A stretch of 64,000 bases of DNA, from positions 33-64,032 of the forward strand of contig JBBQVE010000005.1 in NCBI GenBank assembly GCA_038211855.1, given 5' to 3'. The position numbers were made by a program, and so were the translations under genes. The notes under the pieces were generated by a model. That model worked only from the letters and a program-made list of their open reading frames with translations. It did no database searches and was not told the DNA's origin. Shown here piece by piece: positions 1,261-55,190 of the stretch. Source of the stretch: Candidatus Saccharimonadales bacterium (GTDB lineage: Bacteria > Patescibacteriota > Saccharimonadia > Saccharimonadales > SZUA-47). The stretch's first letter is position 1; the number at the start of each line of letters is the position of its first letter.

Positions 1261-4200
1261 ATGGTTCGTGCCTTCTTTGGGCATATTCTAAACAGTGTAA
1301 AGGCTGCGGTAAGGCAGCTTATTACTTTGTTTTCTGCAAAGACTACCCCTGTTGCGTATCTGAAGACGGCCACACTGATGGCCGTTTTTGTTATTCTGAC
1401 TACTGTTATTTCTGTCACAGGCGTGTTTTCTTATACGCGCGGGGGTGCGAGCGCAGCCGCGAACAGCAATCTCAACTTCCAGGCAAGACTGCTCAGTAAT
1501 ACCGGTAACCTCGTTGCTGATGGGTCGTACAATATCGAGTTTAAGATCTACAAGTCCGCTGCAGCTGGCACATCCGCCCAAAGCGTCTGTAGCTTGAACG
1601 CCAGCACCGACGACTGTTACTGGCTGGAAACCCGCAGCGGTGCCAATACCGTCACCGTGAAGAACGGCTACTTCAGCGTTAACCTTGGCTCAGTCACCGC
1701 CTTCGGCACAAGTATTCCATGGGACCAAGACCTCTGGATGAGTATGCGTATCGGCGGCATAGGCGCACCAAGCTGGGATACCGAAATGACGCCGCGCTTC
1801 AAACTCACAGCTGTGCCATACGCCTATCGCGCCGGCAAACTCCTCGACTCCACCAACACTAATGCATTCACTGCTGATGATCTGATCCAAAAAGCGCCGA
1901 CTGTCATCCAGACCCTCAACAGTACACTGGCCGCCATTCGCCTCAACCAACAAGGCACCGGCGGTCTTTTGCAGTTGCAGAAAAGTGGCAGCGACATCTT
2001 CACCATCGACAACGGTGGCTCGATTACTTCGGTCAGTACGGGGACGAACACGTTTAACCAGGGGGCGACGGGGCAGTTGAGTCTGGTGTCAGATTTGACT
2101 TCGGCCTCGCGCTCGACCTCGTCGTTTTCAATCACGCAGGCTGATAACGCGACAAATAGTCAGTCAGCACCCCTGTTGACGGTCACAAATAGTGATCTTA
2201 CTTCAACAGGCTCGCTTGCCACACTGACCCAGTCATCGACCGCTGCTGCCGACGCCCTGGTAATCTCGACGGCCAGCAATACTACGGCGATATCAGTCAC
2301 GACGCCGGCTGGCGGCACTGCCCTCACGACCGTTGGGTTAACTTCTGGTACGGCCATCAATGCGGACACGGTCACGACTGGTACGGCACTGTCAGATGCC
2401 GGCCTGACATCGGGCACGGGCCTGACGGTTGGCAGCGGCAACGCGATAACAACGGGGGTGGGCTTGCTCTACAATACTACGAGTAACGCCTTCACAACGG
2501 GGAAAGCCTTGAATGTAACAGGGTCCGCTGGTGCGATTACCGCCGATTTCAGCGGGGCTTATATCAACGTGAATCCAACCCGCACACTCACGGCGGCTGC
2601 GACTCGTACTGACTCGGGTAACTTCCTGAATCTGACGCGCGTAGATACGGTGAACAATGCGGGGGCCACGTACAACGTCATCGGTGCACTTGCCAATCTG
2701 CAAAGTACCTGTACGCAGACGGCAGGATCCTGCTCTGATAGCTCAAATATCCTGAACTTGAGCCAACAGTATGCCAATGCAACAGGGGCGGTGTTGAACG
2801 TGAGCGGAGCGGGTACAGGTAATCTTGCGGTGTTTAACGCGACAAATGCCGCAGCAAACGGCGTGTCAATCAATGTGCAATCAAACTCCAACACTAAGTA
2901 TGCCTTTAAGGTGACCAGTAACAACGGTGCCATCAATGGCTTGAATGTGCTTGCCGATGGTACGGTGCAGCTACCAATCCAAACCACTAATGGATTTGTG
3001 AAAACGAGTGGCGGCAATGGCTCGCTGACCGTCGCCACATCAATCGGGCTAGGCTCAACAGATGTCAGTGGCACGCTCGGCATTAGTAACGGCGGCACTA
3101 ATAGTACCGCGACGCCTACCGCCGGCGGCATTGCTTACGGTGCTGGCACCGCCTTTGCCTTCACGGGTGTAGGCATCGCGGGGCAGTGTTTGACCAGCAA
3201 TGCTGGCAGTGCGCCAACCTGGGCAAGTTGTGCTGGCACCGGTTCGGGTACAACTTTGCAGGCGGCCTTCAACAACGGCAATACGATTTTGACAACCGAC
3301 GCTCGGGACTTCAGCGTAACGCTTGCAAACACCACGACCAGTCCAAATGCCTTTATCAATATTGCAGCTGCATCAACCGGCCGCTTTGCTGTACAAAATA
3401 ACGGAGCCGACATATTTGGTGTGAACACAGCAAGTGGTGTGACGATCGGCGCCAACGCTGCCATCAATGGCAACACGATAATCGGCAGCGCTACTACCAA
3501 CCGTCTTACGCTTAACGCGCAGATCTTAGGCACAAACGCATTGGTCTTCCAGGGCGCCACCGATAATGCTTTTGCGACGACCTTTGCCATCACTGACCCA
3601 ACCGCCAACCGCACCATTACGGTGCCAGATGCCAGCGGCACGCTCGACTTTACAGACCTCGCACAAACCTTTAGTGCGTCCAAAACCTTCGGTGCCGGAC
3701 TGTCGATTACGAGCGGCCAAAGTTTGACGATAAATGCCAGTACCTTCACGAGTCTGACTGGCAATAACCTCACCAACACCGCTGGCGTCCTTGGCACCAC
3801 CAACAACCCAAGCTTTACGACGAGCGTCACGACACCGCTCCTCACCAGCTCGGCTGGCCTGACGATTAACAGCGGTAACAATACAATTTCAATCGGTGCC
3901 ACCAACACGGCCATCCAACGCATCGCGTCAGGTACCTTAACCTTCGACCTGAATGATGCTGGAGCTACGACCTTCGCCATCGACAACAGCGCAGCTGGCG
4001 CGGCAAGTATTAACTTGGTTGATGGTGGTCTTCAAACAGCTGGTACGAGCCGCCTGACAAATGCCGGCGTCTTGCAGAATATTACCGGGCTGACGATTGC
4101 TAGCGGCGGTGCAAGTGTCACAGGCGCTGCAACCTTCGTGAACGATGTTGCCATAAATGGCAATACCACTATCGGAAGCGCTACTACCAACCGTCTTACG

Positions 4201-5433
4201 CTTAAAGCGCAGATTCTTGGTGCCAATGCCGAAGTCTTCCAGGGTGCCACCGATAACGCCTTCACGACGACACTCAGCATCACCGACCCAACCGCCAATA
4301 ATACGATCATCGTGCCGGATGTCAGCGGTACGATTCTATTACTCGGCGCCTCGGCCATCCAGACAGATAGCTCAACTAATGTCTCAATCGGTATTAATAA
4401 GACGGGTGCGAGTGGAAATATTCTTACGTTGCAAAAGAATGGAACTAGCGTGTTTACTGTCGGGAACGACGGTGCAATAACTCATGCAGTCACTTCAACA
4501 GCGGCCTTAGTTGTTAACAATGGCACGGGTACTGATTACTTCACAATTAATACCAGCGGTGCACTTGTTCAAATTGGTTCAACCACTGCTGATGCAACGG
4601 GAGTTATGCTTGTGCTCGACACCAAAAATACAACTGGTGACCCTACAGGCCAAAACGGCGGAATGTACTACAACTCAGCTGTGCAATCATATCGTTGCTA
4701 CAGAGGTGTAAATGGTAATGCGAACGATGGTATATGGGAAAGCTGTGGCAAGAATCCAATTGACCACACCTGGAACCTAGAGGAAGACTTTATATCGGGC
4801 AACACGACTGCTTTTGCGATTGGCTCACTTGGCTGGAACCTGCAAACAATAACTACAGGTGTAACAGTGTCATATAATAATGCCGGAGTTCTGGCTCCGA
4901 CCTCTGATCGCCCGGGTATATTACGCTTACGAACAAACGGTAACGTAAGTCGCGGGTCGACTATGTCATTGGCTGGCTCAAGTCTCAGTCCGCTTCCTGT
5001 TGGAGCAGGCACAACAATACGAACAAGCGTCGCAAACTTCAAAAACGGAGGTGCAAATAGTCCAGTATTACGAATCGGTGAACATTCCGAAACAATATCA
5101 ACGACTGCGCCAACCGCAGGTGTATGGTGGGAAGCTGATACGGCTACAAATGCTAACTGGCGATACTGTTATGGGAGTGGTGCAGCGGCTTTGTGCGCAG
5201 TAAGTTCAGTCGCAATCGCCGACAACACGTGGTATCGACTAGAGATTCGTGTAGTAAGTACCACAGCCGTTGACTTCTTTATTAACGGTATAAAGACAAG
5301 TGTTACTGGTATAACACTTGATACCACAACGCAAACCGCTCCAGCATTGACTTGCTTTGCAGGTAGCGCTGTTCAACAAGATTGCTTTGAGGATTATTAT
5401 CAGATTTCAGGCGGCTCCGGTGCGGCTCGCTAA
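1261..5433 (+). CDS. giant (1390 aa) Thr/Ser/Ala/Gly/Asn-rich cell-surface protein with N-terminal TM anchor and C-terminal LamG/ConA-like domain
   Basis: Single uninterrupted 1390-codon ORF with an N-terminal hydrophobic helix (LMAVFVILTTVISVTGVF). The N-terminal module NLNFQARLLSNTGNLVADGSYNIEFKIY...YFSVNLGS...PRFKLTAVPYAYRA recurs in large bacterial fibre/surface proteins. The middle is beta-rich and low-complexity. The C-terminal part (WYRLEIRVVSTTAVDFFINGIK) looks like a jelly-roll lectin fold. Confidence 0.85.
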   Translation: MVRAFFGHILNSVKAAVRQLITLFSAKTTPVAYLKTATLMAVFVILTTVISVTGVFSYTRGGASAAANSNLNFQARLLSNTGNLVADGSYNIEFKIYKSAAAGTSAQSVCSLNASTDDCYWLETRSGANTVTVKNGYFSVNLGSVTAFGTSIPWDQDLWMSMRIGGIGAPSWDTEMTPRFKLTAVPYAYRAGKLLDSTNTNAFTADDLIQKAPTVIQTLNSTLAAIRLNQQGTGGLLQLQKSGSDIFTIDNGGSITSVSTGTNTFNQGATGQLSLVSDLTSASRSTSSFSITQADNATNSQSAPLLTVTNSDLTSTGSLATLTQSSTAAADALVISTASNTTAISVTTPAGGTALTTVGLTSGTAINADTVTTGTALSDAGLTSGTGLTVGSGNAITTGVGLLYNTTSNAFTTGKALNVTGSAGAITADFSGAYINVNPTRTLTAAATRTDSGNFLNLTRVDTVNNAGATYNVIGALANLQSTCTQTAGSCSDSSNILNLSQQYANATGAVLNVSGAGTGNLAVFNATNAAANGVSINVQSNSNTKYAFKVTSNNGAINGLNVLADGTVQLPIQTTNGFVKTSGGNGSLTVATSIGLGSTDVSGTLGISNGGTNSTATPTAGGIAYGAGTAFAFTGVGIAGQCLTSNAGSAPTWASCAGTGSGTTLQAAFNNGNTILTTDARDFSVTLANTTTSPNAFINIAAASTGRFAVQNNGADIFGVNTASGVTIGANAAINGNTIIGSATTNRLTLNAQILGTNALVFQGATDNAFATTFAITDPTANRTITVPDASGTLDFTDLAQTFSASKTFGAGLSITSGQSLTINASTFTSLTGNNLTNTAGVLGTTNNPSFTTSVTTPLLTSSAGLTINSGNNTISIGATNTAIQRIASGTLTFDLNDAGATTFAIDNSAAGAASINLVDGGLQTAGTSRLTNAGVLQNITGLTIASGGASVTGAATFVNDVAINGNTTIGSATTNRLTLKAQILGANAEVFQGATDNAFTTTLSITDPTANNTIIVPDVSGTILLLGASAIQTDSSTNVSIGINKTGASGNILTLQKNGTSVFTVGNDGAITHAVTSTAALVVNNGTGTDYFTINTSGALVQIGSTTADATGVMLVLDTKNTTGDPTGQNGGMYYNSAVQSYRCYRGVNGNANDGIWESCGKNPIDHTWNLEEDFISGNTTAFAIGSLGWNLQTITTGVTVSYNNAGVLAPTSDRPGILRLRTNGNVSRGSTMSLAGSSLSPLPVGAGTTIRTSVANFKNGGANSPVLRIGEHSETISTTAPTAGVWWEADTATNANWRYCYGSGAAALCAVSSVAIADNTWYRLEIRVVSTTAVDFFINGIKTSVTGITLDTTTQTAPALTCFAGSAVQQDCFEDYYQISGGSGAAR
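3460..3645 (+). repeat. internal direct repeat copy 1 (62 codons) inside the giant surface-protein gene
   Basis: AINGNTIIGSATTNRLTLNAQILGTNALVFQGATDNAFATTFAITDPTANRTITVPDASGTL. By hand alignment about 144/186 nt and 51/62 aa are identical to copy 2. A 29-nt run at 3487-3515 is identical to 4177-4205. Confidence 0.9.
4150..4335 (+). repeat. internal direct repeat copy 2, 690 nt (230 codons) downstream of copy 1
   Basis: AINGNTTIGSATTNRLTLKAQILGANAEVFQGATDNAFTTTLSITDPTANNTIIVPDVSGTI, in frame with copy 1. Confidence 0.9.
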
Positions 5434-33685: not shown

Positions 33686-33988
33686 ATGAAAGCACTATGG
33701 AACGATAAAGTGATTGCCGAAGCAGCTAAAGAAGACCTTATATATATTGAAGGTAACTGGTACTTTCCACCTTCAAGCATCAAGATGGAATTTCTCGAGA
33801 AAAGCCCGACGCCATACACCTGCCCATGGAAGGGTGTCTGTCAGTACTTTAATGTGGTAGATGGCGACACAAAAAGCGAAGACAATGCTTTTAGCTACCC
33901 CGAACCAAAAGCGAGCGCTATTGATACGGTGAAAAAGGACTTTTCAAATTACGTCGCGTTTTACCGTGATGTCCGTGTTGAGGAATAG
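33686..33988 (+). CDS. DUF427 domain protein
   Basis: 100 aa. NWYFPPSSI...CPWKGVCQYFNV...AFY is typical of DUF427. AAGGAG SD. Confidence 0.8.
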   Translation: MKALWNDKVIAEAAKEDLIYIEGNWYFPPSSIKMEFLEKSPTPYTCPWKGVCQYFNVVDGDTKSEDNAFSYPEPKASAIDTVKKDFSNYVAFYRDVRVEE

Positions 33989-34547
33989 AGCTGTTTTCGT
34001 CGGACTTGTAGTGCTGTTGGTAGTATCCTTCAGCTATATGAACCATCGATACAATCAACTTTCTAATGTGCAAAATGATGTATCGGCCATAGACTTTCAT
34101 GACCAGTTTTATGAAGGCAAGGCCTGCGGATTGTTGACGACCGTGGAAGCGGCAAAGTGGCTCGATACACCGGTTGGCACCAGCGGCAGCGTATCGCCAG
34201 CCGACAGCCCGACGGCCGGCACACGCTTCGGCAGCCCGCGCATCGACAGTTGCTCGCATACTGCCATAAAAAGCTCAGATGGCTACATAGATCTTGTTTT
34301 AAAAACTTACAGTAGCCAAAAAGTTGCCGACTCCGCGTATAGCCAGGAAATCGCCAAACTTTTTACGGTGACAGCACGAGATGCCAGCGGGCTAGGGCAA
34401 AAACTTAGCTATGGTGATGGTGCGTTTTATGTAGAAAAGCAGTGCATGGTCATCGAAATCAGTGCTTCAAAAACTCCCCGTATTGGTGACGCCAGCACTG
34501 AAAGATTCGCGCGCGCGATAGTAGAATCAATCCTGGTGAAACTATGA
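33966..34547 (+). CDS. hypothetical membrane-anchored/secreted protein
   Basis: N-terminal helix AVFVGLVVLLVVSF. 193 aa. Overlaps DUF427 by 23 nt and the next ORF by 4 nt. Confidence 0.5.
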   Translation: MMSVLRNRAVFVGLVVLLVVSFSYMNHRYNQLSNVQNDVSAIDFHDQFYEGKACGLLTTVEAAKWLDTPVGTSGSVSPADSPTAGTRFGSPRIDSCSHTAIKSSDGYIDLVLKTYSSQKVADSAYSQEIAKLFTVTARDASGLGQKLSYGDGAFYVEKQCMVIEISASKTPRIGDASTERFARAIVESILVKL

Positions 34548-35056
34548 AAAAAACAGCTATCGCAATTGTTGTTTTGCTGGCCGCGAGCGTCAGTGCAGGC
34601 TTGCTCGTGTATGAGCATTCAGTAAAGCCGAAAGCGCTTCAGAAAGCGCCACCTGTAGTTGTCAAGACGCTGCCCATTCCCATCAAACAGACGCCTGTTG
34701 CTGCGCCACAACCCGTCGTCGAAAGTGGCTATGTGATAGGTGTAGTCGCGATTAGCAAGTCAGTCAACGGCGAGCTGATTTCGCTAAAGATTTATAATGA
34801 TGGCGATACAACGCTGACGTCGGATCCTGATACCCAGTTCAAGCTGGTCGGCGTGGATGATCATGTCAGCCGATCGCCGATACCACGTACGACATCATCT
34901 AGTTTGATTGGTCAGCTACCAACGAATACTTCTCGATCGGGGATTATTAAATTTGATAGCTTTGTAAATGAAGCCAGTCAACTGCGTTTTTATCCCGATT
35001 CTGCGCAGCCAAATTTCATTGTAGTTCCGCTGATTCCATTGCCAGAGAGTCAGTAA
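34544..35056 (+). CDS. hypothetical secreted protein, possible Ig-like (DUF4352-like) fold
   Basis: Signal-like N-terminus MKKTAIAIVVLLAASVSAG. The C-terminal beta-rich segment ISLKIYNDGDTTLTSDPDTQFKLVG is only weakly suggestive. Confidence 0.5.
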   Translation: MKKTAIAIVVLLAASVSAGLLVYEHSVKPKALQKAPPVVVKTLPIPIKQTPVAAPQPVVESGYVIGVVAISKSVNGELISLKIYNDGDTTLTSDPDTQFKLVGVDDHVSRSPIPRTTSSSLIGQLPTNTSRSGIIKFDSFVNEASQLRFYPDSAQPNFIVVPLIPLPESQ

Positions 35057-35117
35057 TAGCGTTGTAATAGTTTGTCATTGCTTGTAACGCTTACCTATAA
35101 CCGGTACACTGTTTGCT

Positions 35118-36104
35118 ATGGCTACAACTTCTAAAAAATCATCCAGCAAAAAGACCAAAACGACTCGTAAGGTAAGTACCGCACCCATTAAGAAAACTAC
35201 CGCCAAAAAAGTATCACCAAAGAAAAGTACGACTCAAGGCACGACTTCAAAGGCAGCAGCGACCAAAACAACTGAAGTATCAGCAAAGGTCCAAAAGCCT
35301 GTATTAAATAAAGCAGTGAGTGTTTCTACGCCGCTGCAAAAACTGCGATCGCTGAACTTTTTTGTAGCGTTTGCTAGCGTTCTGCAAGCAGGCCTGATTC
35401 TTTTCTTGAGCAAAGCTTTTGGTGGCATACATTCCGTGTTTGCAAGCTTCCCAACGAATGATTCTCTGGCAACTGCTAGCAGTGGTCAGGCACAAATAGT
35501 GACTGGTGCACATCGCTTATTTGATGTTCATCTTTCTTGGCTTATCGCAGCCTTTCTTATTGTCACTGCAGTGATGCACCTTGCGCTTGCGACCATTCTG
35601 CGTAAGCGCTATGAGCGAGAGGTAGCTGTTCGTGTGAACCGCGTACGATGGGCAACGTACGCAATTTCGGGTAGCTTGCTACTCGTCACGATTGCCCTCG
35701 CTGCCGGCGTGAGTGACCTTGTTACTTTGCTTGCCATTGTTGGCTTCAACGTTATAGCTGCTCTCGTCGCTTTGAGCCGCGAACACTATACGCAAAACGG
35801 TGAGCGCACACGTTTGGTCTACGGCATCGGCGCAATAGCAGCTGGCGCACCATTCGTAATCTTTCTACTGAATATTTTAGGTACGCATCAGTACGGTGAA
35901 GGTGGAACGCCTAAGTATGTGTATTGGCTTTACTTTACTGGTTTTGTCATAGTGAGTGCATTGGCACGTAACCTCATTCAGCAGACTCGTGTTCGTGGCC
36001 GTTGGATTGATTATATCTATGCAGAACGTGTCTACATTTGGCTTAGTCTTATCGGTAGTAGTGCTGTTGCATGGGAAATTTACTCCGCCGTCCTAAAGAA
36101 GTAA
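35118..36104 (+). CDS. heliorhodopsin-like 7-TM protein lacking the retinal-binding lysine, with Lys/Thr/Ser-rich N-terminal tail
   Basis: Conserved blocks match heliorhodopsin 48C12 from memory: LRSLNFF, NRVRWATYAISGS, DLVTLLAIVGFN, EHYTQ, AERVYIWLSLIGSSAVAWEIY. Ser314 sits at the Schiff-base Lys position and Thr180 at the counterion Glu position. Confidence 0.65.
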   Translation: MATTSKKSSSKKTKTTRKVSTAPIKKTTAKKVSPKKSTTQGTTSKAAATKTTEVSAKVQKPVLNKAVSVSTPLQKLRSLNFFVAFASVLQAGLILFLSKAFGGIHSVFASFPTNDSLATASSGQAQIVTGAHRLFDVHLSWLIAAFLIVTAVMHLALATILRKRYEREVAVRVNRVRWATYAISGSLLLVTIALAAGVSDLVTLLAIVGFNVIAALVALSREHYTQNGERTRLVYGIGAIAAGAPFVIFLLNILGTHQYGEGGTPKYVYWLYFTGFVIVSALARNLIQQTRVRGRWIDYIYAERVYIWLSLIGSSAVAWEIYSAVLKK

Positions 36105-54002: not shown

Positions 54003-55190
54003 TTATTCCTTCGTTATTACTACGAGTTCACGGGCGACAAGCTGATTTTCTCGATGGTAAATCATGTCGCTTTTACGAGCGTGAACAAACTTGAATTCAT
54101 TATAGCCTAACTCCTTGAGATGGTCAAGCACCGGTAAGCGTAAAAACGCACCTTTAACGACGCTCCACGCCGGTACTGCTAAACAGAGGCGAGTGCCGCT
54201 TTCTAGCTGCGGGGCGATATTCTCCAGAAACTTCTGGTGGATAGCGTTGGTATTCTCAATAATTTTACGTAGATTCTCAGGGTTTGGTAGGGTAGTTAGT
54301 GGTGCGCCAAGATAGGTTTCACCTGCGACGGCACCAATTGGCTGTTGCCACTTGTGGGTCGTAGCGTCGCCGATCTCGATTCGGACATTCGTATCGACAT
54401 CTTTCCATTTGTTGCGCAGCCAGTGCATGTTGCCAATGGAATATTCGACCATCCGCAGCTCGAGGTCGGTCCCAAAAGAGTCATAGTTCATGAGGCTTGC
54501 TTCTTGCAAGATTACGCCAGTCCCGCAGAAAGGATCTAAAACGGGGCCTTTGAGCTTTGTTGATCCAACGGCGAGGTTGACGATTGTCTGGGCGAGTTTT
54601 GGCGGCAGCATACCCACGCGCGCGTCGCGCATCGGGCGAGCCTGGTCGCGAGCTGCATATTTTTCGATATTCTGAATGTCGGTTGTCTGGCAGAGGTACG
54701 TTGTGCGACCATCGCTTATTACGATGAGTTCCCAATTGCCAGGTTCGGCCAGTTTATTATGTAAGACCTGCGCGCTATTGAGTTCCAGTTCCTTATTGGG
54801 GACGATACGCACTGGGCGACCAGATTTTTTGATCTGTTTCTTCATTTCAAGTAGGCCACGTTCAAGTTCTTTTATGTGCACTTTCACACCGAATAAGCTC
54901 AGACCGATGGTAATTTTTCCTTCGGGCAGGGCAGCAGCGTGGATAGGTGTTTTCTCGAGTAAATAATTACGGATGCCGGTCCAGTCATTCGGTACTTTCG
55001 TGAGCACCTTGCACAGTCGGGTGCTGCCGCCAATTTGATCGAACTTTATCTCTATAGTGGCAACATCCACAAAGACCGCGCCACGGCCATAGGGTTCGAT
55101 CTTATGGCTGCCGTAGAGGCTTTCGAGCTCAGCGAGCCCAAGCACTGGCTGGCGCCCCAAAATAAGCAGTGAAGGAAAAACTGTCTCCAT
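54003..55190 (-). CDS. putative RNA methyltransferase (UPF0020/Trm11-like class I SAM MTase)
   Basis: SAM motif LDPFCGTGVILQEA. Motif IV looks atypical (AGETYLG rather than DPPYG). The start at 55190 lies 9 nt after a minus-strand TATACT; the ORF track start 55271 is the alternative. Confidence 0.6.
   Translation of the reverse strand: METVFPSLLILGRQPVLGLAELESLYGSHKIEPYGRGAVFVDVATIEIKFDQIGGSTRLCKVLTKVPNDWTGIRNYLLEKTPIHAAALPEGKITIGLSLFGVKVHIKELERGLLEMKKQIKKSGRPVRIVPNKELELNSAQVLHNKLAEPGNWELIVISDGRTTYLCQTTDIQNIEKYAARDQARPMRDARVGMLPPKLAQTIVNLAVGSTKLKGPVLDPFCGTGVILQEASLMNYDSFGTDLELRMVEYSIGNMHWLRNKWKDVDTNVRIEIGDATTHKWQQPIGAVAGETYLGAPLTTLPNPENLRKIIENTNAIHQKFLENIAPQLESGTRLCLAVPAWSVVKGAFLRLPVLDHLKELGYNEFKFVHARKSDMIYHRENQLVARELVVITKE

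Follow-up and report, generated by a model that had tools for sequence, protein, structure and literature searches.

A heliorhodopsin-family protein without the Schiff-base lysine in a Saccharimonadales bacterium

A full-length heliorhodopsin fold

The DNA analysed here, a stretch of 64,000 nucleotides (nt) from a Candidatus Saccharimonadales bacterium (contig JBBQVE010000005.1, positions 33 to 64,032; hereafter the window), carries on its + strand at 35118..36104 a gene for a 328-amino-acid (aa) protein of the heliorhodopsin (HeR) family that lacks the Schiff-base lysine (HeR-noK). The ATG at 35118 is the earliest start codon in frame and yields the MATTSKK N terminus common to homologs. The open reading frame (ORF) encodes a polybasic, disordered tail, predicted to be cytoplasmic (residues 1-75; 35118..35342, +), and a core of seven transmembrane (TM) helices with a beta hairpin between TM1 and TM2 (residues 76-328; 35343..36101, +). 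A short, unusually conserved spacer and genes for two small proteins precede it.

To assign the protein to a family, we compared it with profile models, known structures and a predicted fold. The Pfam Heliorhodopsin hidden Markov model (PF18761) matched residues 76-326 over its whole length (model positions 1-242 of 242; E=1.6e-50, 172.2 bits against a cut-off of 26.7 bits), and the NCBIfam HeR equivalog model NF038020 scored 164.3 bits against a cut-off of 100 bits. In phmmer searches of the PDB only heliorhodopsins matched, including TaHeR (6is6, 1e-29) and 48C12 (6su3, 2e-26). DENN, Wzz and other sub-threshold Pfam and NCBIfam matches were spurious, arising from low complexity or TM segments. 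An AlphaFold2 model built on 26 homologs had a predicted local distance difference test score (pLDDT) of ~90 in the TM region and showed seven helices (residues 72-97, 139-158, 175-195, 201-227, 232-259, 266-290 and 299-326) together with the HeR-specific TM1-TM2 beta hairpin (strands 104-114 and 127-138). Foldseek aligned this model to TaHeR with a TM-score of 0.92 and a root-mean-square deviation of 1.7 Å, and to 48C12 with a TM-score of 0.88, whereas type-1 rhodopsins reached just ~0.5-0.7. The N-terminal segment (residues 1-78) holds 20 Lys and Arg residues and the BC, DE and FG loops a further 14, versus five in the AB, CD and EF loops and the C terminus, which predicts the N-in topology of HeRs. 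An earlier note, made by a model from the letters alone, had called the protein heliorhodopsin-like over residues ~77-328; all of its block alignments to 48C12 could be reproduced, and two of the checks that it had proposed, the Pfam search and the structural comparison, bore it out, with residue equivalences upheld by alignments to HeR crystal-structure chains. These results confirm that the window protein is a genuine, full-length member of the HeR-fold family.

Loss of the Schiff-base lysine and its counterion

Residue equivalences were taken from phmmer alignments to PDB chains and from a MAFFT alignment with the 48C12 sequence, which serves as numbering reference and was verified as 100% identical to 6su3/9ljj. 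Both methods place Ser314 (codon AGT, 36057..36059, +) at the position of the Schiff-base lysine (48C12 K241, TaHeR K238) and Thr180 (codon ACG, 35655..35657, +) at that of the Schiff-base counterion (48C12 E107), and thus bear out the assignments and codon coordinates proposed earlier. The SxxxK motif of HeRs reads SLIGS in the window protein, Ser310 (48C12 S237) being kept and the lysine replaced by Ser314; where a functional HeR has Glu or Asp as counterion, the window protein has Thr180. A scan of TM7 (299-326) found no lysine, as the earlier note had observed, and none lies inside any other predicted TM helix; the nearest, K75 and K266, are at helix ends. This rules out a substitute Schiff-base lysine in another part of the TM bundle. 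Because no TM helix contains a lysine, the window protein cannot form the canonical covalent retinal Schiff base.

The cytoplasmic polar core is kept (48C12 N16, H80, Y92, N101, R104, W105, E149, Q216, Y226 and E230), and so, besides W105, are L12, Y108, N138, F72 and F203. Replaced are H23 (Ser87), the ionone and polyene contacts (M141A, I142A, F206V and Q213L) and I170 (I170G). In the window's clade the volume of pocket-lining side chains is ~300-370 Å^3 below that of 48C12 or of the lysine-bearing (K+) relatives P0010 and P0030; across the whole set of lysine-less (K-) relatives it does not differ significantly from that of K+ members (p=0.07). A pocket filled by bulky residues in the manner of FArhodopsins was considered and rejected, the residues in the window's clade being smaller.

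The same hydrophobic substitutions (positions 141, 142, 170, 206 and 213) could leave a hydrophobic cavity or fenestration. One reading, which we consider unlikely, is accordingly that the opsin fold serves as a retinal-independent phospholipid scramblase or lipid-binding protein, useful to Saccharibacteria that depend on host lipids. A dependence of bacteria of the candidate phyla radiation (CPR) on lipids from their hosts belongs to the general background of this reading. The gene is retained in genomes of ~0.8-1 Mb, and a precedent is offered by a proteorhodopsin reported to have scramblase activity in the dark (PMC10730872). Set against these points, we found no report of scramblase activity for an HeR, and the reduction in pocket volume does not extend to the K- set as a whole.

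An unfilled pocket would also suit a protein that still carries a chromophore, be it non-covalent retinal, a retinylidene amine or a carotenoid. Lysine-less mutants of bacteriorhodopsin and rhodopsin have been reconstituted with retinylidene-alkylamines, and the window protein keeps W105, Y108, N138, F72 and F203. A carotenoid-binding site on HeRs has been proposed (bioRxiv 2025.11.27.691015). Several observations nevertheless make a chromophore-bearing photoreceptor quite unlikely. With lysine and counterion both gone, a protonated Schiff base would be left unstabilised; the residues of the Schiff-base environment decay along with the lysine, as described below; and the ionone and polyene contacts M141, I142, F206 and Q213 are replaced. 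A K- relative 29% identical to the window protein (P0020, locus L012; alignment A3) comes from a farmland-soil assembly. Furthermore, the gene for retinal synthesis, blh, was absent from the rhodopsin-encoding Saccharibacteria genomes examined by Jaffe et al. in 2022 (PMC9296517). The earlier note had judged the host likely unable to make retinal and had asked for a check of its carotenoid and retinal genes; made within the window, which as 64 kb of a ~1-Mb genome can prove little, this check is in line with that view, with no retinal or carotenoid enzyme among the 30 window proteins scanned with Pfam (~24 other window genes lay outside the scan).

Conservation of the polar core bears on a different proposal, that the protein binds or transports anions or other ions through its cytoplasmic polar cavity (R177, E303, E222, N80, N174, Y165 and H154 of the window protein). 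All cavity residues of 48C12 are kept except H23 and E107; the cavity of HeRs binds acetate or chloride at low pH (PMC7049168); an enzymatic or anion-related role has been suggested for HeRs (PMC9385722, PMC10434121); and viral HeRs are reported to transport protons. Yet the two exceptions, now Thr180 and Ser87, themselves line the cavity, the extracellular half stays hydrophobic as in non-transporting HeRs, and the conserved residues may be purely structural. We regard this proposal as very unlikely.

Recurrent lysine loss among relatives

To examine how the lysine fares among relatives, as the earlier note had suggested, we searched 1.84 billion cluster representatives with an HeR profile. 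The search returned 3169 HeR-family clusters, the best 150 of which were aligned with 48C12 together with earlier matches; most of the aligned sequences are representatives of 50%-identity clusters. A separate scan of genome contigs yielded just two HeRs, the canonical actinobacterial L001 and L002. The K241 column holds a lysine in 58 of 175 aligned sequences and otherwise A, S, V, T, Q, N and other residues. Because the flanking positions (Y226, E230-R, A-W246-Q247) stay conserved, the change in this column is not a misalignment. Once fragments and duplicates were removed, 113 of the 169 sequences nearest the window protein were K- and 56 K+ (one variant of the set kept one more K- sequence, n=114); the K- share may be inflated by a query profile built mostly from lysine-less sequences, although K+ and K- matches are interleaved in score. 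The window protein is thus no one-off: it sits in a large radiation with many lysine losses.

The two states are interspersed. In a tree-free test, the nearest neighbour of 48 of the 169 sequences has the opposite state, at up to 55-61% identity, and a neighbour-joining tree is star-like, with K states interspersed and a Fitch minimum of 33 changes (the tree is crude). Both results reject monophyly of the K- proteins and, because K+ and K- states are interspersed, show from the alignment that the lysine was lost recurrently in the HeR radiation near the window protein. Counterion and lysine show a strong tendency to be lost together (odds ratio 27, p=2e-17), and the positions that change most when the lysine is gone are E107, Y108, S111, H80 and S76 (48C12 numbering). 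By contrast, L12, N16, Y92, N101, R104, W105, E149 and E230, all kept in the window protein, are 87-98% conserved in K- members. Judged by these patterns of substitution, lysine loss is specifically accompanied by decay of the Schiff-base environment, and constraint is lost only there.

The residues that occupy the lysine site suggest how single steps could connect them. Within the window's own clade they are Ser (AGT), Asn (AAC) and Val (GTT), and orthologs also have Ala (GCC); single-nucleotide changes lead from K(AAR) through N(AAY) to S(AGY), and Asn stands at the site in relatives P0003-P0005 and P0008. Nested in this lysine-less clade, one member (P0007/P0016; alignments A1 and A3) has Lys at the Schiff-base position and Thr at the counterion position, and in it W246, H23 and H80 are replaced by Ala, Phe and Tyr, respectively. 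Its lysine reflects either retention with parallel losses around it or a single-nucleotide reversion from Asn. A second, larger lysine-less clade (P0012, P0014 and P0017-P0028; A3), one member of which is the farmland-soil protein on L012, has a TM3 glycine run, RWVGFGLGGG, over 48C12 positions 107 and 111-113, as well as Leu for W246; its alignment points to another route by which the retinal pocket may have been remodelled or have collapsed.

SecA encoded in the window is 73-74% identical to proteins that bear the labels Candidatus Saccharibacteria, Saccharimonadales or Patescibacteria, with relatives on contigs of up to ~1 Mb, and two lysine-less relatives of the HeR protein are labelled Saccharimonadales and Saccharibacteria by NCBI. 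The relative P0054 (MBA3757600.1; L014 6001-6822) has Ser at both the counterion and the lysine position and is named 'heliorhodopsin HeR' in NCBI nr, so that NF038020 does not discriminate pigment-less members. Because this equivalog model gives lysine-less proteins that name, estimates of phototrophy or photosensing that rely on counting rhodopsins in CPR genomes may come out too high.

Selection on the gene and orthology with canonical heliorhodopsins

The closest ortholog of the window protein is P0002 on locus L003, which is 75% identical and has an identical gene order. Between the two genes, synonymous divergence (pS) has reached saturation at 0.77-0.82, and nonsynonymous divergence (pN) amounts to 0.095 for the TM core and 0.25 for the tail. 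Saturation at synonymous sites together with so low a pN in the core shows that the gene is under strong purifying selection. Region-wise entropy indicates that conservation of K- members is essentially equal to that of K+ members. It shows no asymmetry between cytoplasmic and extracellular sides, and the idea that conservation is concentrated on the cytoplasmic face was rejected on this measure.

A stable block of genes surrounds the HeR gene: ProRS-GreA-LysRS ... HeR ... TRAM-methyltransferase-RsmE-PDDEXK-SerRS-S30AE-SecA-M16. It is common to the window and the K- loci L003, L004-L007, L009, L011, L013 and L014, whose HeR proteins, apart from the 75%-identical one of L003, are only 28-50% identical to the window protein. 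Canonical relatives with both lysine and counterion have the same neighbours. K+ P0029 (locus L008) is flanked by homologs of both small upstream proteins and by the TRAM-methyltransferase; downstream of K+ P0037 follows RsmE; and the HAD hydrolase found in K- loci L007, L009 and L011 also comes next after K+ P0030. Since the neighbours are shared, the lysine-less gene is a positional ortholog of canonical HeRs and descends from a canonical HeR at its own locus and is not an extra paralog.

These data bear on two further readings. Loss of the catalytic lysine and its counterion might mark a non-functional relic, a pseudogene in slow decay. Such a relic is effectively refuted, and extremely improbable, given an intact reading frame, saturated pS against a pN of 0.095, retention of one locus across such divergent proteins in highly reduced genomes, a conserved promoter-like element and conservation equal to that of K+ members.

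The second is that the protein is a partner subunit tuning a canonical rhodopsin encoded elsewhere, a heterodimer of the kind proposed for Rh-noK and FArhodopsins. HeRs are dimers (PMC7049168), a functional paralog accompanies Rh-noK and FArhodopsins in every case, and some freshwater Saccharimonadia encode type-1 rhodopsins together with HeRs. The K- gene is, however, a positional ortholog of K+ HeRs and not an added paralog. Moreover, an HeR-profile search of ORFs found no second HeR in the window or in the fetched loci (up to ~10 kb either side of the HeR gene, less on short contigs), and phmmer with bacteriorhodopsin found no type-1 rhodopsin in the window or L001-L007. We therefore consider a heterodimer subunit rather improbable.

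The polybasic N-terminal tail

In the first 72 residues, the tail length by the count used here (the earlier note gave 75, up to the start of the HeR domain at residue 76), there are 18 Lys and Arg, one acidic residue and 16 Thr, giving a net charge of ~+17. Disorder is predicted, with pLDDT <50 over residues 1-64. A tail motif, MATTSKKxxSKKTKTTRK, is kept in homologs, and one SPKK motif (residues 33-36) recurs as [S/T/A]PKK in close homologs. Composition and disorder thus support the earlier description of a long, basic tail rich in Lys, Thr, Ser and Ala. It is the sole tail of its type among the protein-coding genes of the window, the other match in the scan being an 84-codon antisense ORF (54481-54735, - strand).

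Any tie between the tail and lysine loss, by contrast, did not survive comparison with relatives. In the 169-sequence set, 50% of K+ members, among them the nearest canonical relatives P0010 and P0029, and 69% of K- members have a polybasic K/T/A/S tail, which often begins with MATT.KK. Because K+ relatives carry the same tail, its distribution indicates that it pre-dates loss of the lysine.

For some homologs the gene start has been called wrongly. In P0022 (L009 8001) the call begins at an internal GTG, while Lys-rich coding sequence extends further upstream, and P0005 has 13 extra residues ahead of the conserved MATTSK.

Relation to known opsins

With the heliorhodopsins 48C12 and TaHeR the window protein shares the whole-model profile match, the fold, the N-in topology, the cytoplasmic polar core and S237; it differs from them in K241 (Ser), E107 (Thr), H23 (Ser), altered pocket contacts and the 72-75 aa polybasic tail. 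Replacement of the TM7 lysine has a parallel in HeR-like proteins of betachloroviruses, which carry Asn at this position, as P0003-P0005 and P0008 do, and are mentioned in passing in a 2025 study (Viruses 2025, PMC12390592). Those proteins belong to giant viruses of eukaryotes, their loss was probably independent, and no polybasic tail has been described for them.

Lysine-less type-1 opsins likewise combine an intact rhodopsin fold with loss of the retinal lysine; they are expressed or conserved, and retinal is presumed not to be needed for what they do. They include haloarchaeal proteins (Becker et al. 2016), betaproteobacterial Rh-noK, Guillardia Rh-noKs and fungal ORPs (Hsp30/Yro2). They belong to another family (type 1, N-out), and whereas Rh-noK is a tandem paralog beside a working pump, the lysine-less gene of the window replaces the canonical one at its own locus. 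Revertants of Rh-noK have been seen to bind retinal again. FArhodopsins are also retinal-free rhodopsin-fold proteins of streamlined bacterial genomes, but are of type 1, in many cases keep the lysine in a filled pocket, and are linked to flotillin and a proteorhodopsin paralog. The window protein, unlike them, has smaller pocket residues and neither flotillin nor a paralog in the regions searched, flotillin having been sought among the 30 Pfam-scanned window proteins and the called genes of the fetched loci. The window protein belongs to the descriptive class of lysine-less opsins, which is not a monophyletic family. It is neither an Rh-noK in the strict sense nor an FArhodopsin: only the HeR model matches it, and no paired rhodopsin or flotillin occurs in the regions searched.

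Lysine-less opsins are well known as such: ~600 of 5558 catalogued microbial rhodopsins are without the lysine (PMC7714340). Major HeR surveys accept as bona fide only those HeRs that have the SxxxK motif or the TM7 lysine (PMC8612252, PMC9601134, PMC9166423), and another major HeR survey curates out sequences that lack the lysine. Because the motif or lysine is required there, lysine-less members drop out of the datasets. In the literature searched, within which few subscription papers fell, the betachlorovirus remark was the only mention of lysine-less HeRs, and the supplements of Chiriac contained no motif matches. The earlier note held that a light-independent derivative of the HeR fold would be new. 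This holds only in part, given the lysine-less type-1 opsins and the betachlorovirus case of 2025; what does appear, within the literature searched, to be undescribed is a large bacterial radiation of lysine-less HeRs that are positional orthologs of canonical ones and carry a polybasic tail.

Possible function without retinal

The physiological role of heliorhodopsins has been unsettled since their discovery in 2018. Many lysine-less clusters, purifying selection in ~1-Mb genomes and positional orthology with canonical HeRs together argue for a benefit of the HeR scaffold that does not depend on retinal. We lean, with modest confidence, towards the view that the window protein is a retinal-free 'pseudo-heliorhodopsin' with a light-independent role. 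On this account, a vertically inherited Saccharibacterium HeR gene kept the complete 7-TM fold, N-in topology and cytoplasmic polar core, Ser314 took the place of the Schiff-base lysine and Thr180 that of the counterion, and the product would act without light. What survives would probably be the partner-binding or membrane-platform role of HeRs, made constitutive instead of light-gated, and the ~+17 polybasic SPKK tail would probably add a contact to a polyanionic partner such as nucleic acid, an acidic protein or an anionic lipid surface. The scaffolding or signalling role that the earlier note had raised is likewise conjectural.

Characterised bacterial HeRs bind and modulate glutamine synthetase, photolyase and the ABC transporter OmrDE, and protein-protein regulation from the membrane is their only experimentally supported mode of action (PMC11109279). 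Because it is the sole demonstrated mode for bacterial HeRs, partner binding is the most plausible retained activity, and the role of these regulatory HeRs is the likeliest to survive loss of the chromophore. They differ from the window protein in being light-gated and retinal-bound, with partners encoded in the same operon.

Several observations weigh against this interpretation. No partner gene is evident in the gene context of the window, and the neighbours that are present (MsrA in related loci, an ABC/FtsX pair, small exported proteins) may reflect synteny and not function. As the tail is older than the loss of the lysine, it is uninformative on any new role. The lack of a cytoplasmic-face bias in conservation means that a cytoplasmic binding platform is not specifically favoured, the smaller pocket residues mean that a ligand cavity may persist, and, with 64 kb of the genome in view, a canonical rhodopsin paralog may lie elsewhere.

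More broadly, we raise tentatively, and with some doubt, the possibility that HeRs in general have a retinal-independent core function. The HeR gene of Saccharibacteria would then be old, syntenic and close to a core gene, and many lineages (about two-thirds of the 50%-identity clusters nearest the window protein) would have discarded its chromophore site but held on to the fold, the cytoplasmic polar core and a polybasic SPKK-type tail. If so, the chromophore would only gate what the protein does in the dark, for instance the handling of lipids or the tethering or regulation of a polyanionic partner, and K+ and K- orthologs at the same locus would be a direct handle on what HeRs do. Matched natural K+/K- pairs are available for experiments.

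The upstream region and neighbouring genes

The 61-nt intergenic spacer ahead of the HeR gene (35057..35117, +) is 95% identical to that of L003, compared with ~70% for the surrounding 7 kb. It contains a probable promoter, TTGTAA (35082-35087) and TACACT (35105-35110) separated by 17 nt (35082..35110, +), whose -10 element ends 7 nt before the ATG. The same arrangement recurs in L003, L006 and L004 (TAGACT in L004), and in L008, L007 and L011 the ATG is preceded, at a distance of 6-7 nt, by TACACT or TATAGT. No Shine-Dalgarno sequence is visible ahead of the HeR gene. This arrangement suggests that TTGTAA-17-TACACT may be the gene's own promoter and that its mRNA may be leaderless or nearly so. 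The earlier note had instead proposed a TTGTCA-18-TATAAC promoter. Both strings exist (TTGTCA at 35072-77 and TATAAC at 35096-101), but the -10 lacks the final T and was not called by the promoter scan; we rejected the pair as probably wrong, as its -35 differs in L003 and neither hexamer is kept in L006 or L004.

Three TTGTNA hexamers stand in the spacer at an exact 10-bp period (TTGTAA 35062, TTGTCA 35072 and TTGTAA 35082), and only the third is kept in all four orthologous loci examined. The triplet could be a regulator-binding array.

Positions 35048-35170, which span the spacer and the first ~17 codons of the HeR gene, are the most conserved DNA in the 7-kb neighbourhood relative to L003, reaching 100% identity over stretches of 40 nt where the average is 70%. 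Over codons 1-12, the sole difference from L003 is nonsynonymous (TCC/CCC, Ser to Pro, codon 9), with no synonymous change. Because synonymous sites are unchanged here though saturated elsewhere, this pattern suggests that an A-rich, leaderless mRNA may be under selection at its 5' end.

The two small proteins that the earlier note placed just upstream (33966-35056) were confirmed as ORFs, each with one N-terminal hydrophobic segment, and both are conserved neighbours. The first (33966..34547, +) is a 193-aa protein with an N-terminal membrane anchor of one TM segment, and has no Pfam match. The second (34544..35056, +) is a 170-aa protein with one N-terminal TM segment as signal or anchor and a weak DUF4352-like beta-sandwich (E=0.022 in the window and 6.8e-5 in L008, neither of which reaches the cut-off). 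The 193-aa ORF starts with a GTG inside the last 23 nt of a DUF427 gene (33686-33988; overlap 33966-33988). It shares a further 4 nt (34544-34547) with the 170-aa ORF, a sign that these two small ORFs may be translationally coupled. The pair lies upstream of HeR in the window, in L003 (8807-9939; K-) and in L008 (1-1050; K+), and MsrA takes this place in other lineages.

MsrA is directly upstream on the same strand in five K- loci (L004 5865-6341, L006 3756-4235, L007 7416-7955, L009 7308-7796 and L011 2849-3337) and also adjoins the HeR gene in L005 and L010, which are grouped as L004/5 and L009/10. The gap between the two genes is just 12 nt in L011; in L014 MsrA is 2 kb off, and it was missing from the regions retrieved around the HeR gene in the window, L003, L008 and L013. 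As the whole region is stable housekeeping synteny, MsrA was demoted from functional partner to a weak lead. An ABC/FtsX pair 1.5 kb upstream of the HeR gene is part of the same synteny. The adjacency of MsrA could echo a proposed link between HeRs and oxidative stress, or be mere synteny.

An Rfam search of the whole window gave no match. Far upstream of the HeR gene, a 1390-aa ORF (1261-5433) with an N-terminal TM segment and no Pfam match coincides with the sole part of the window in which GC content is raised (0.536 versus ~0.48).

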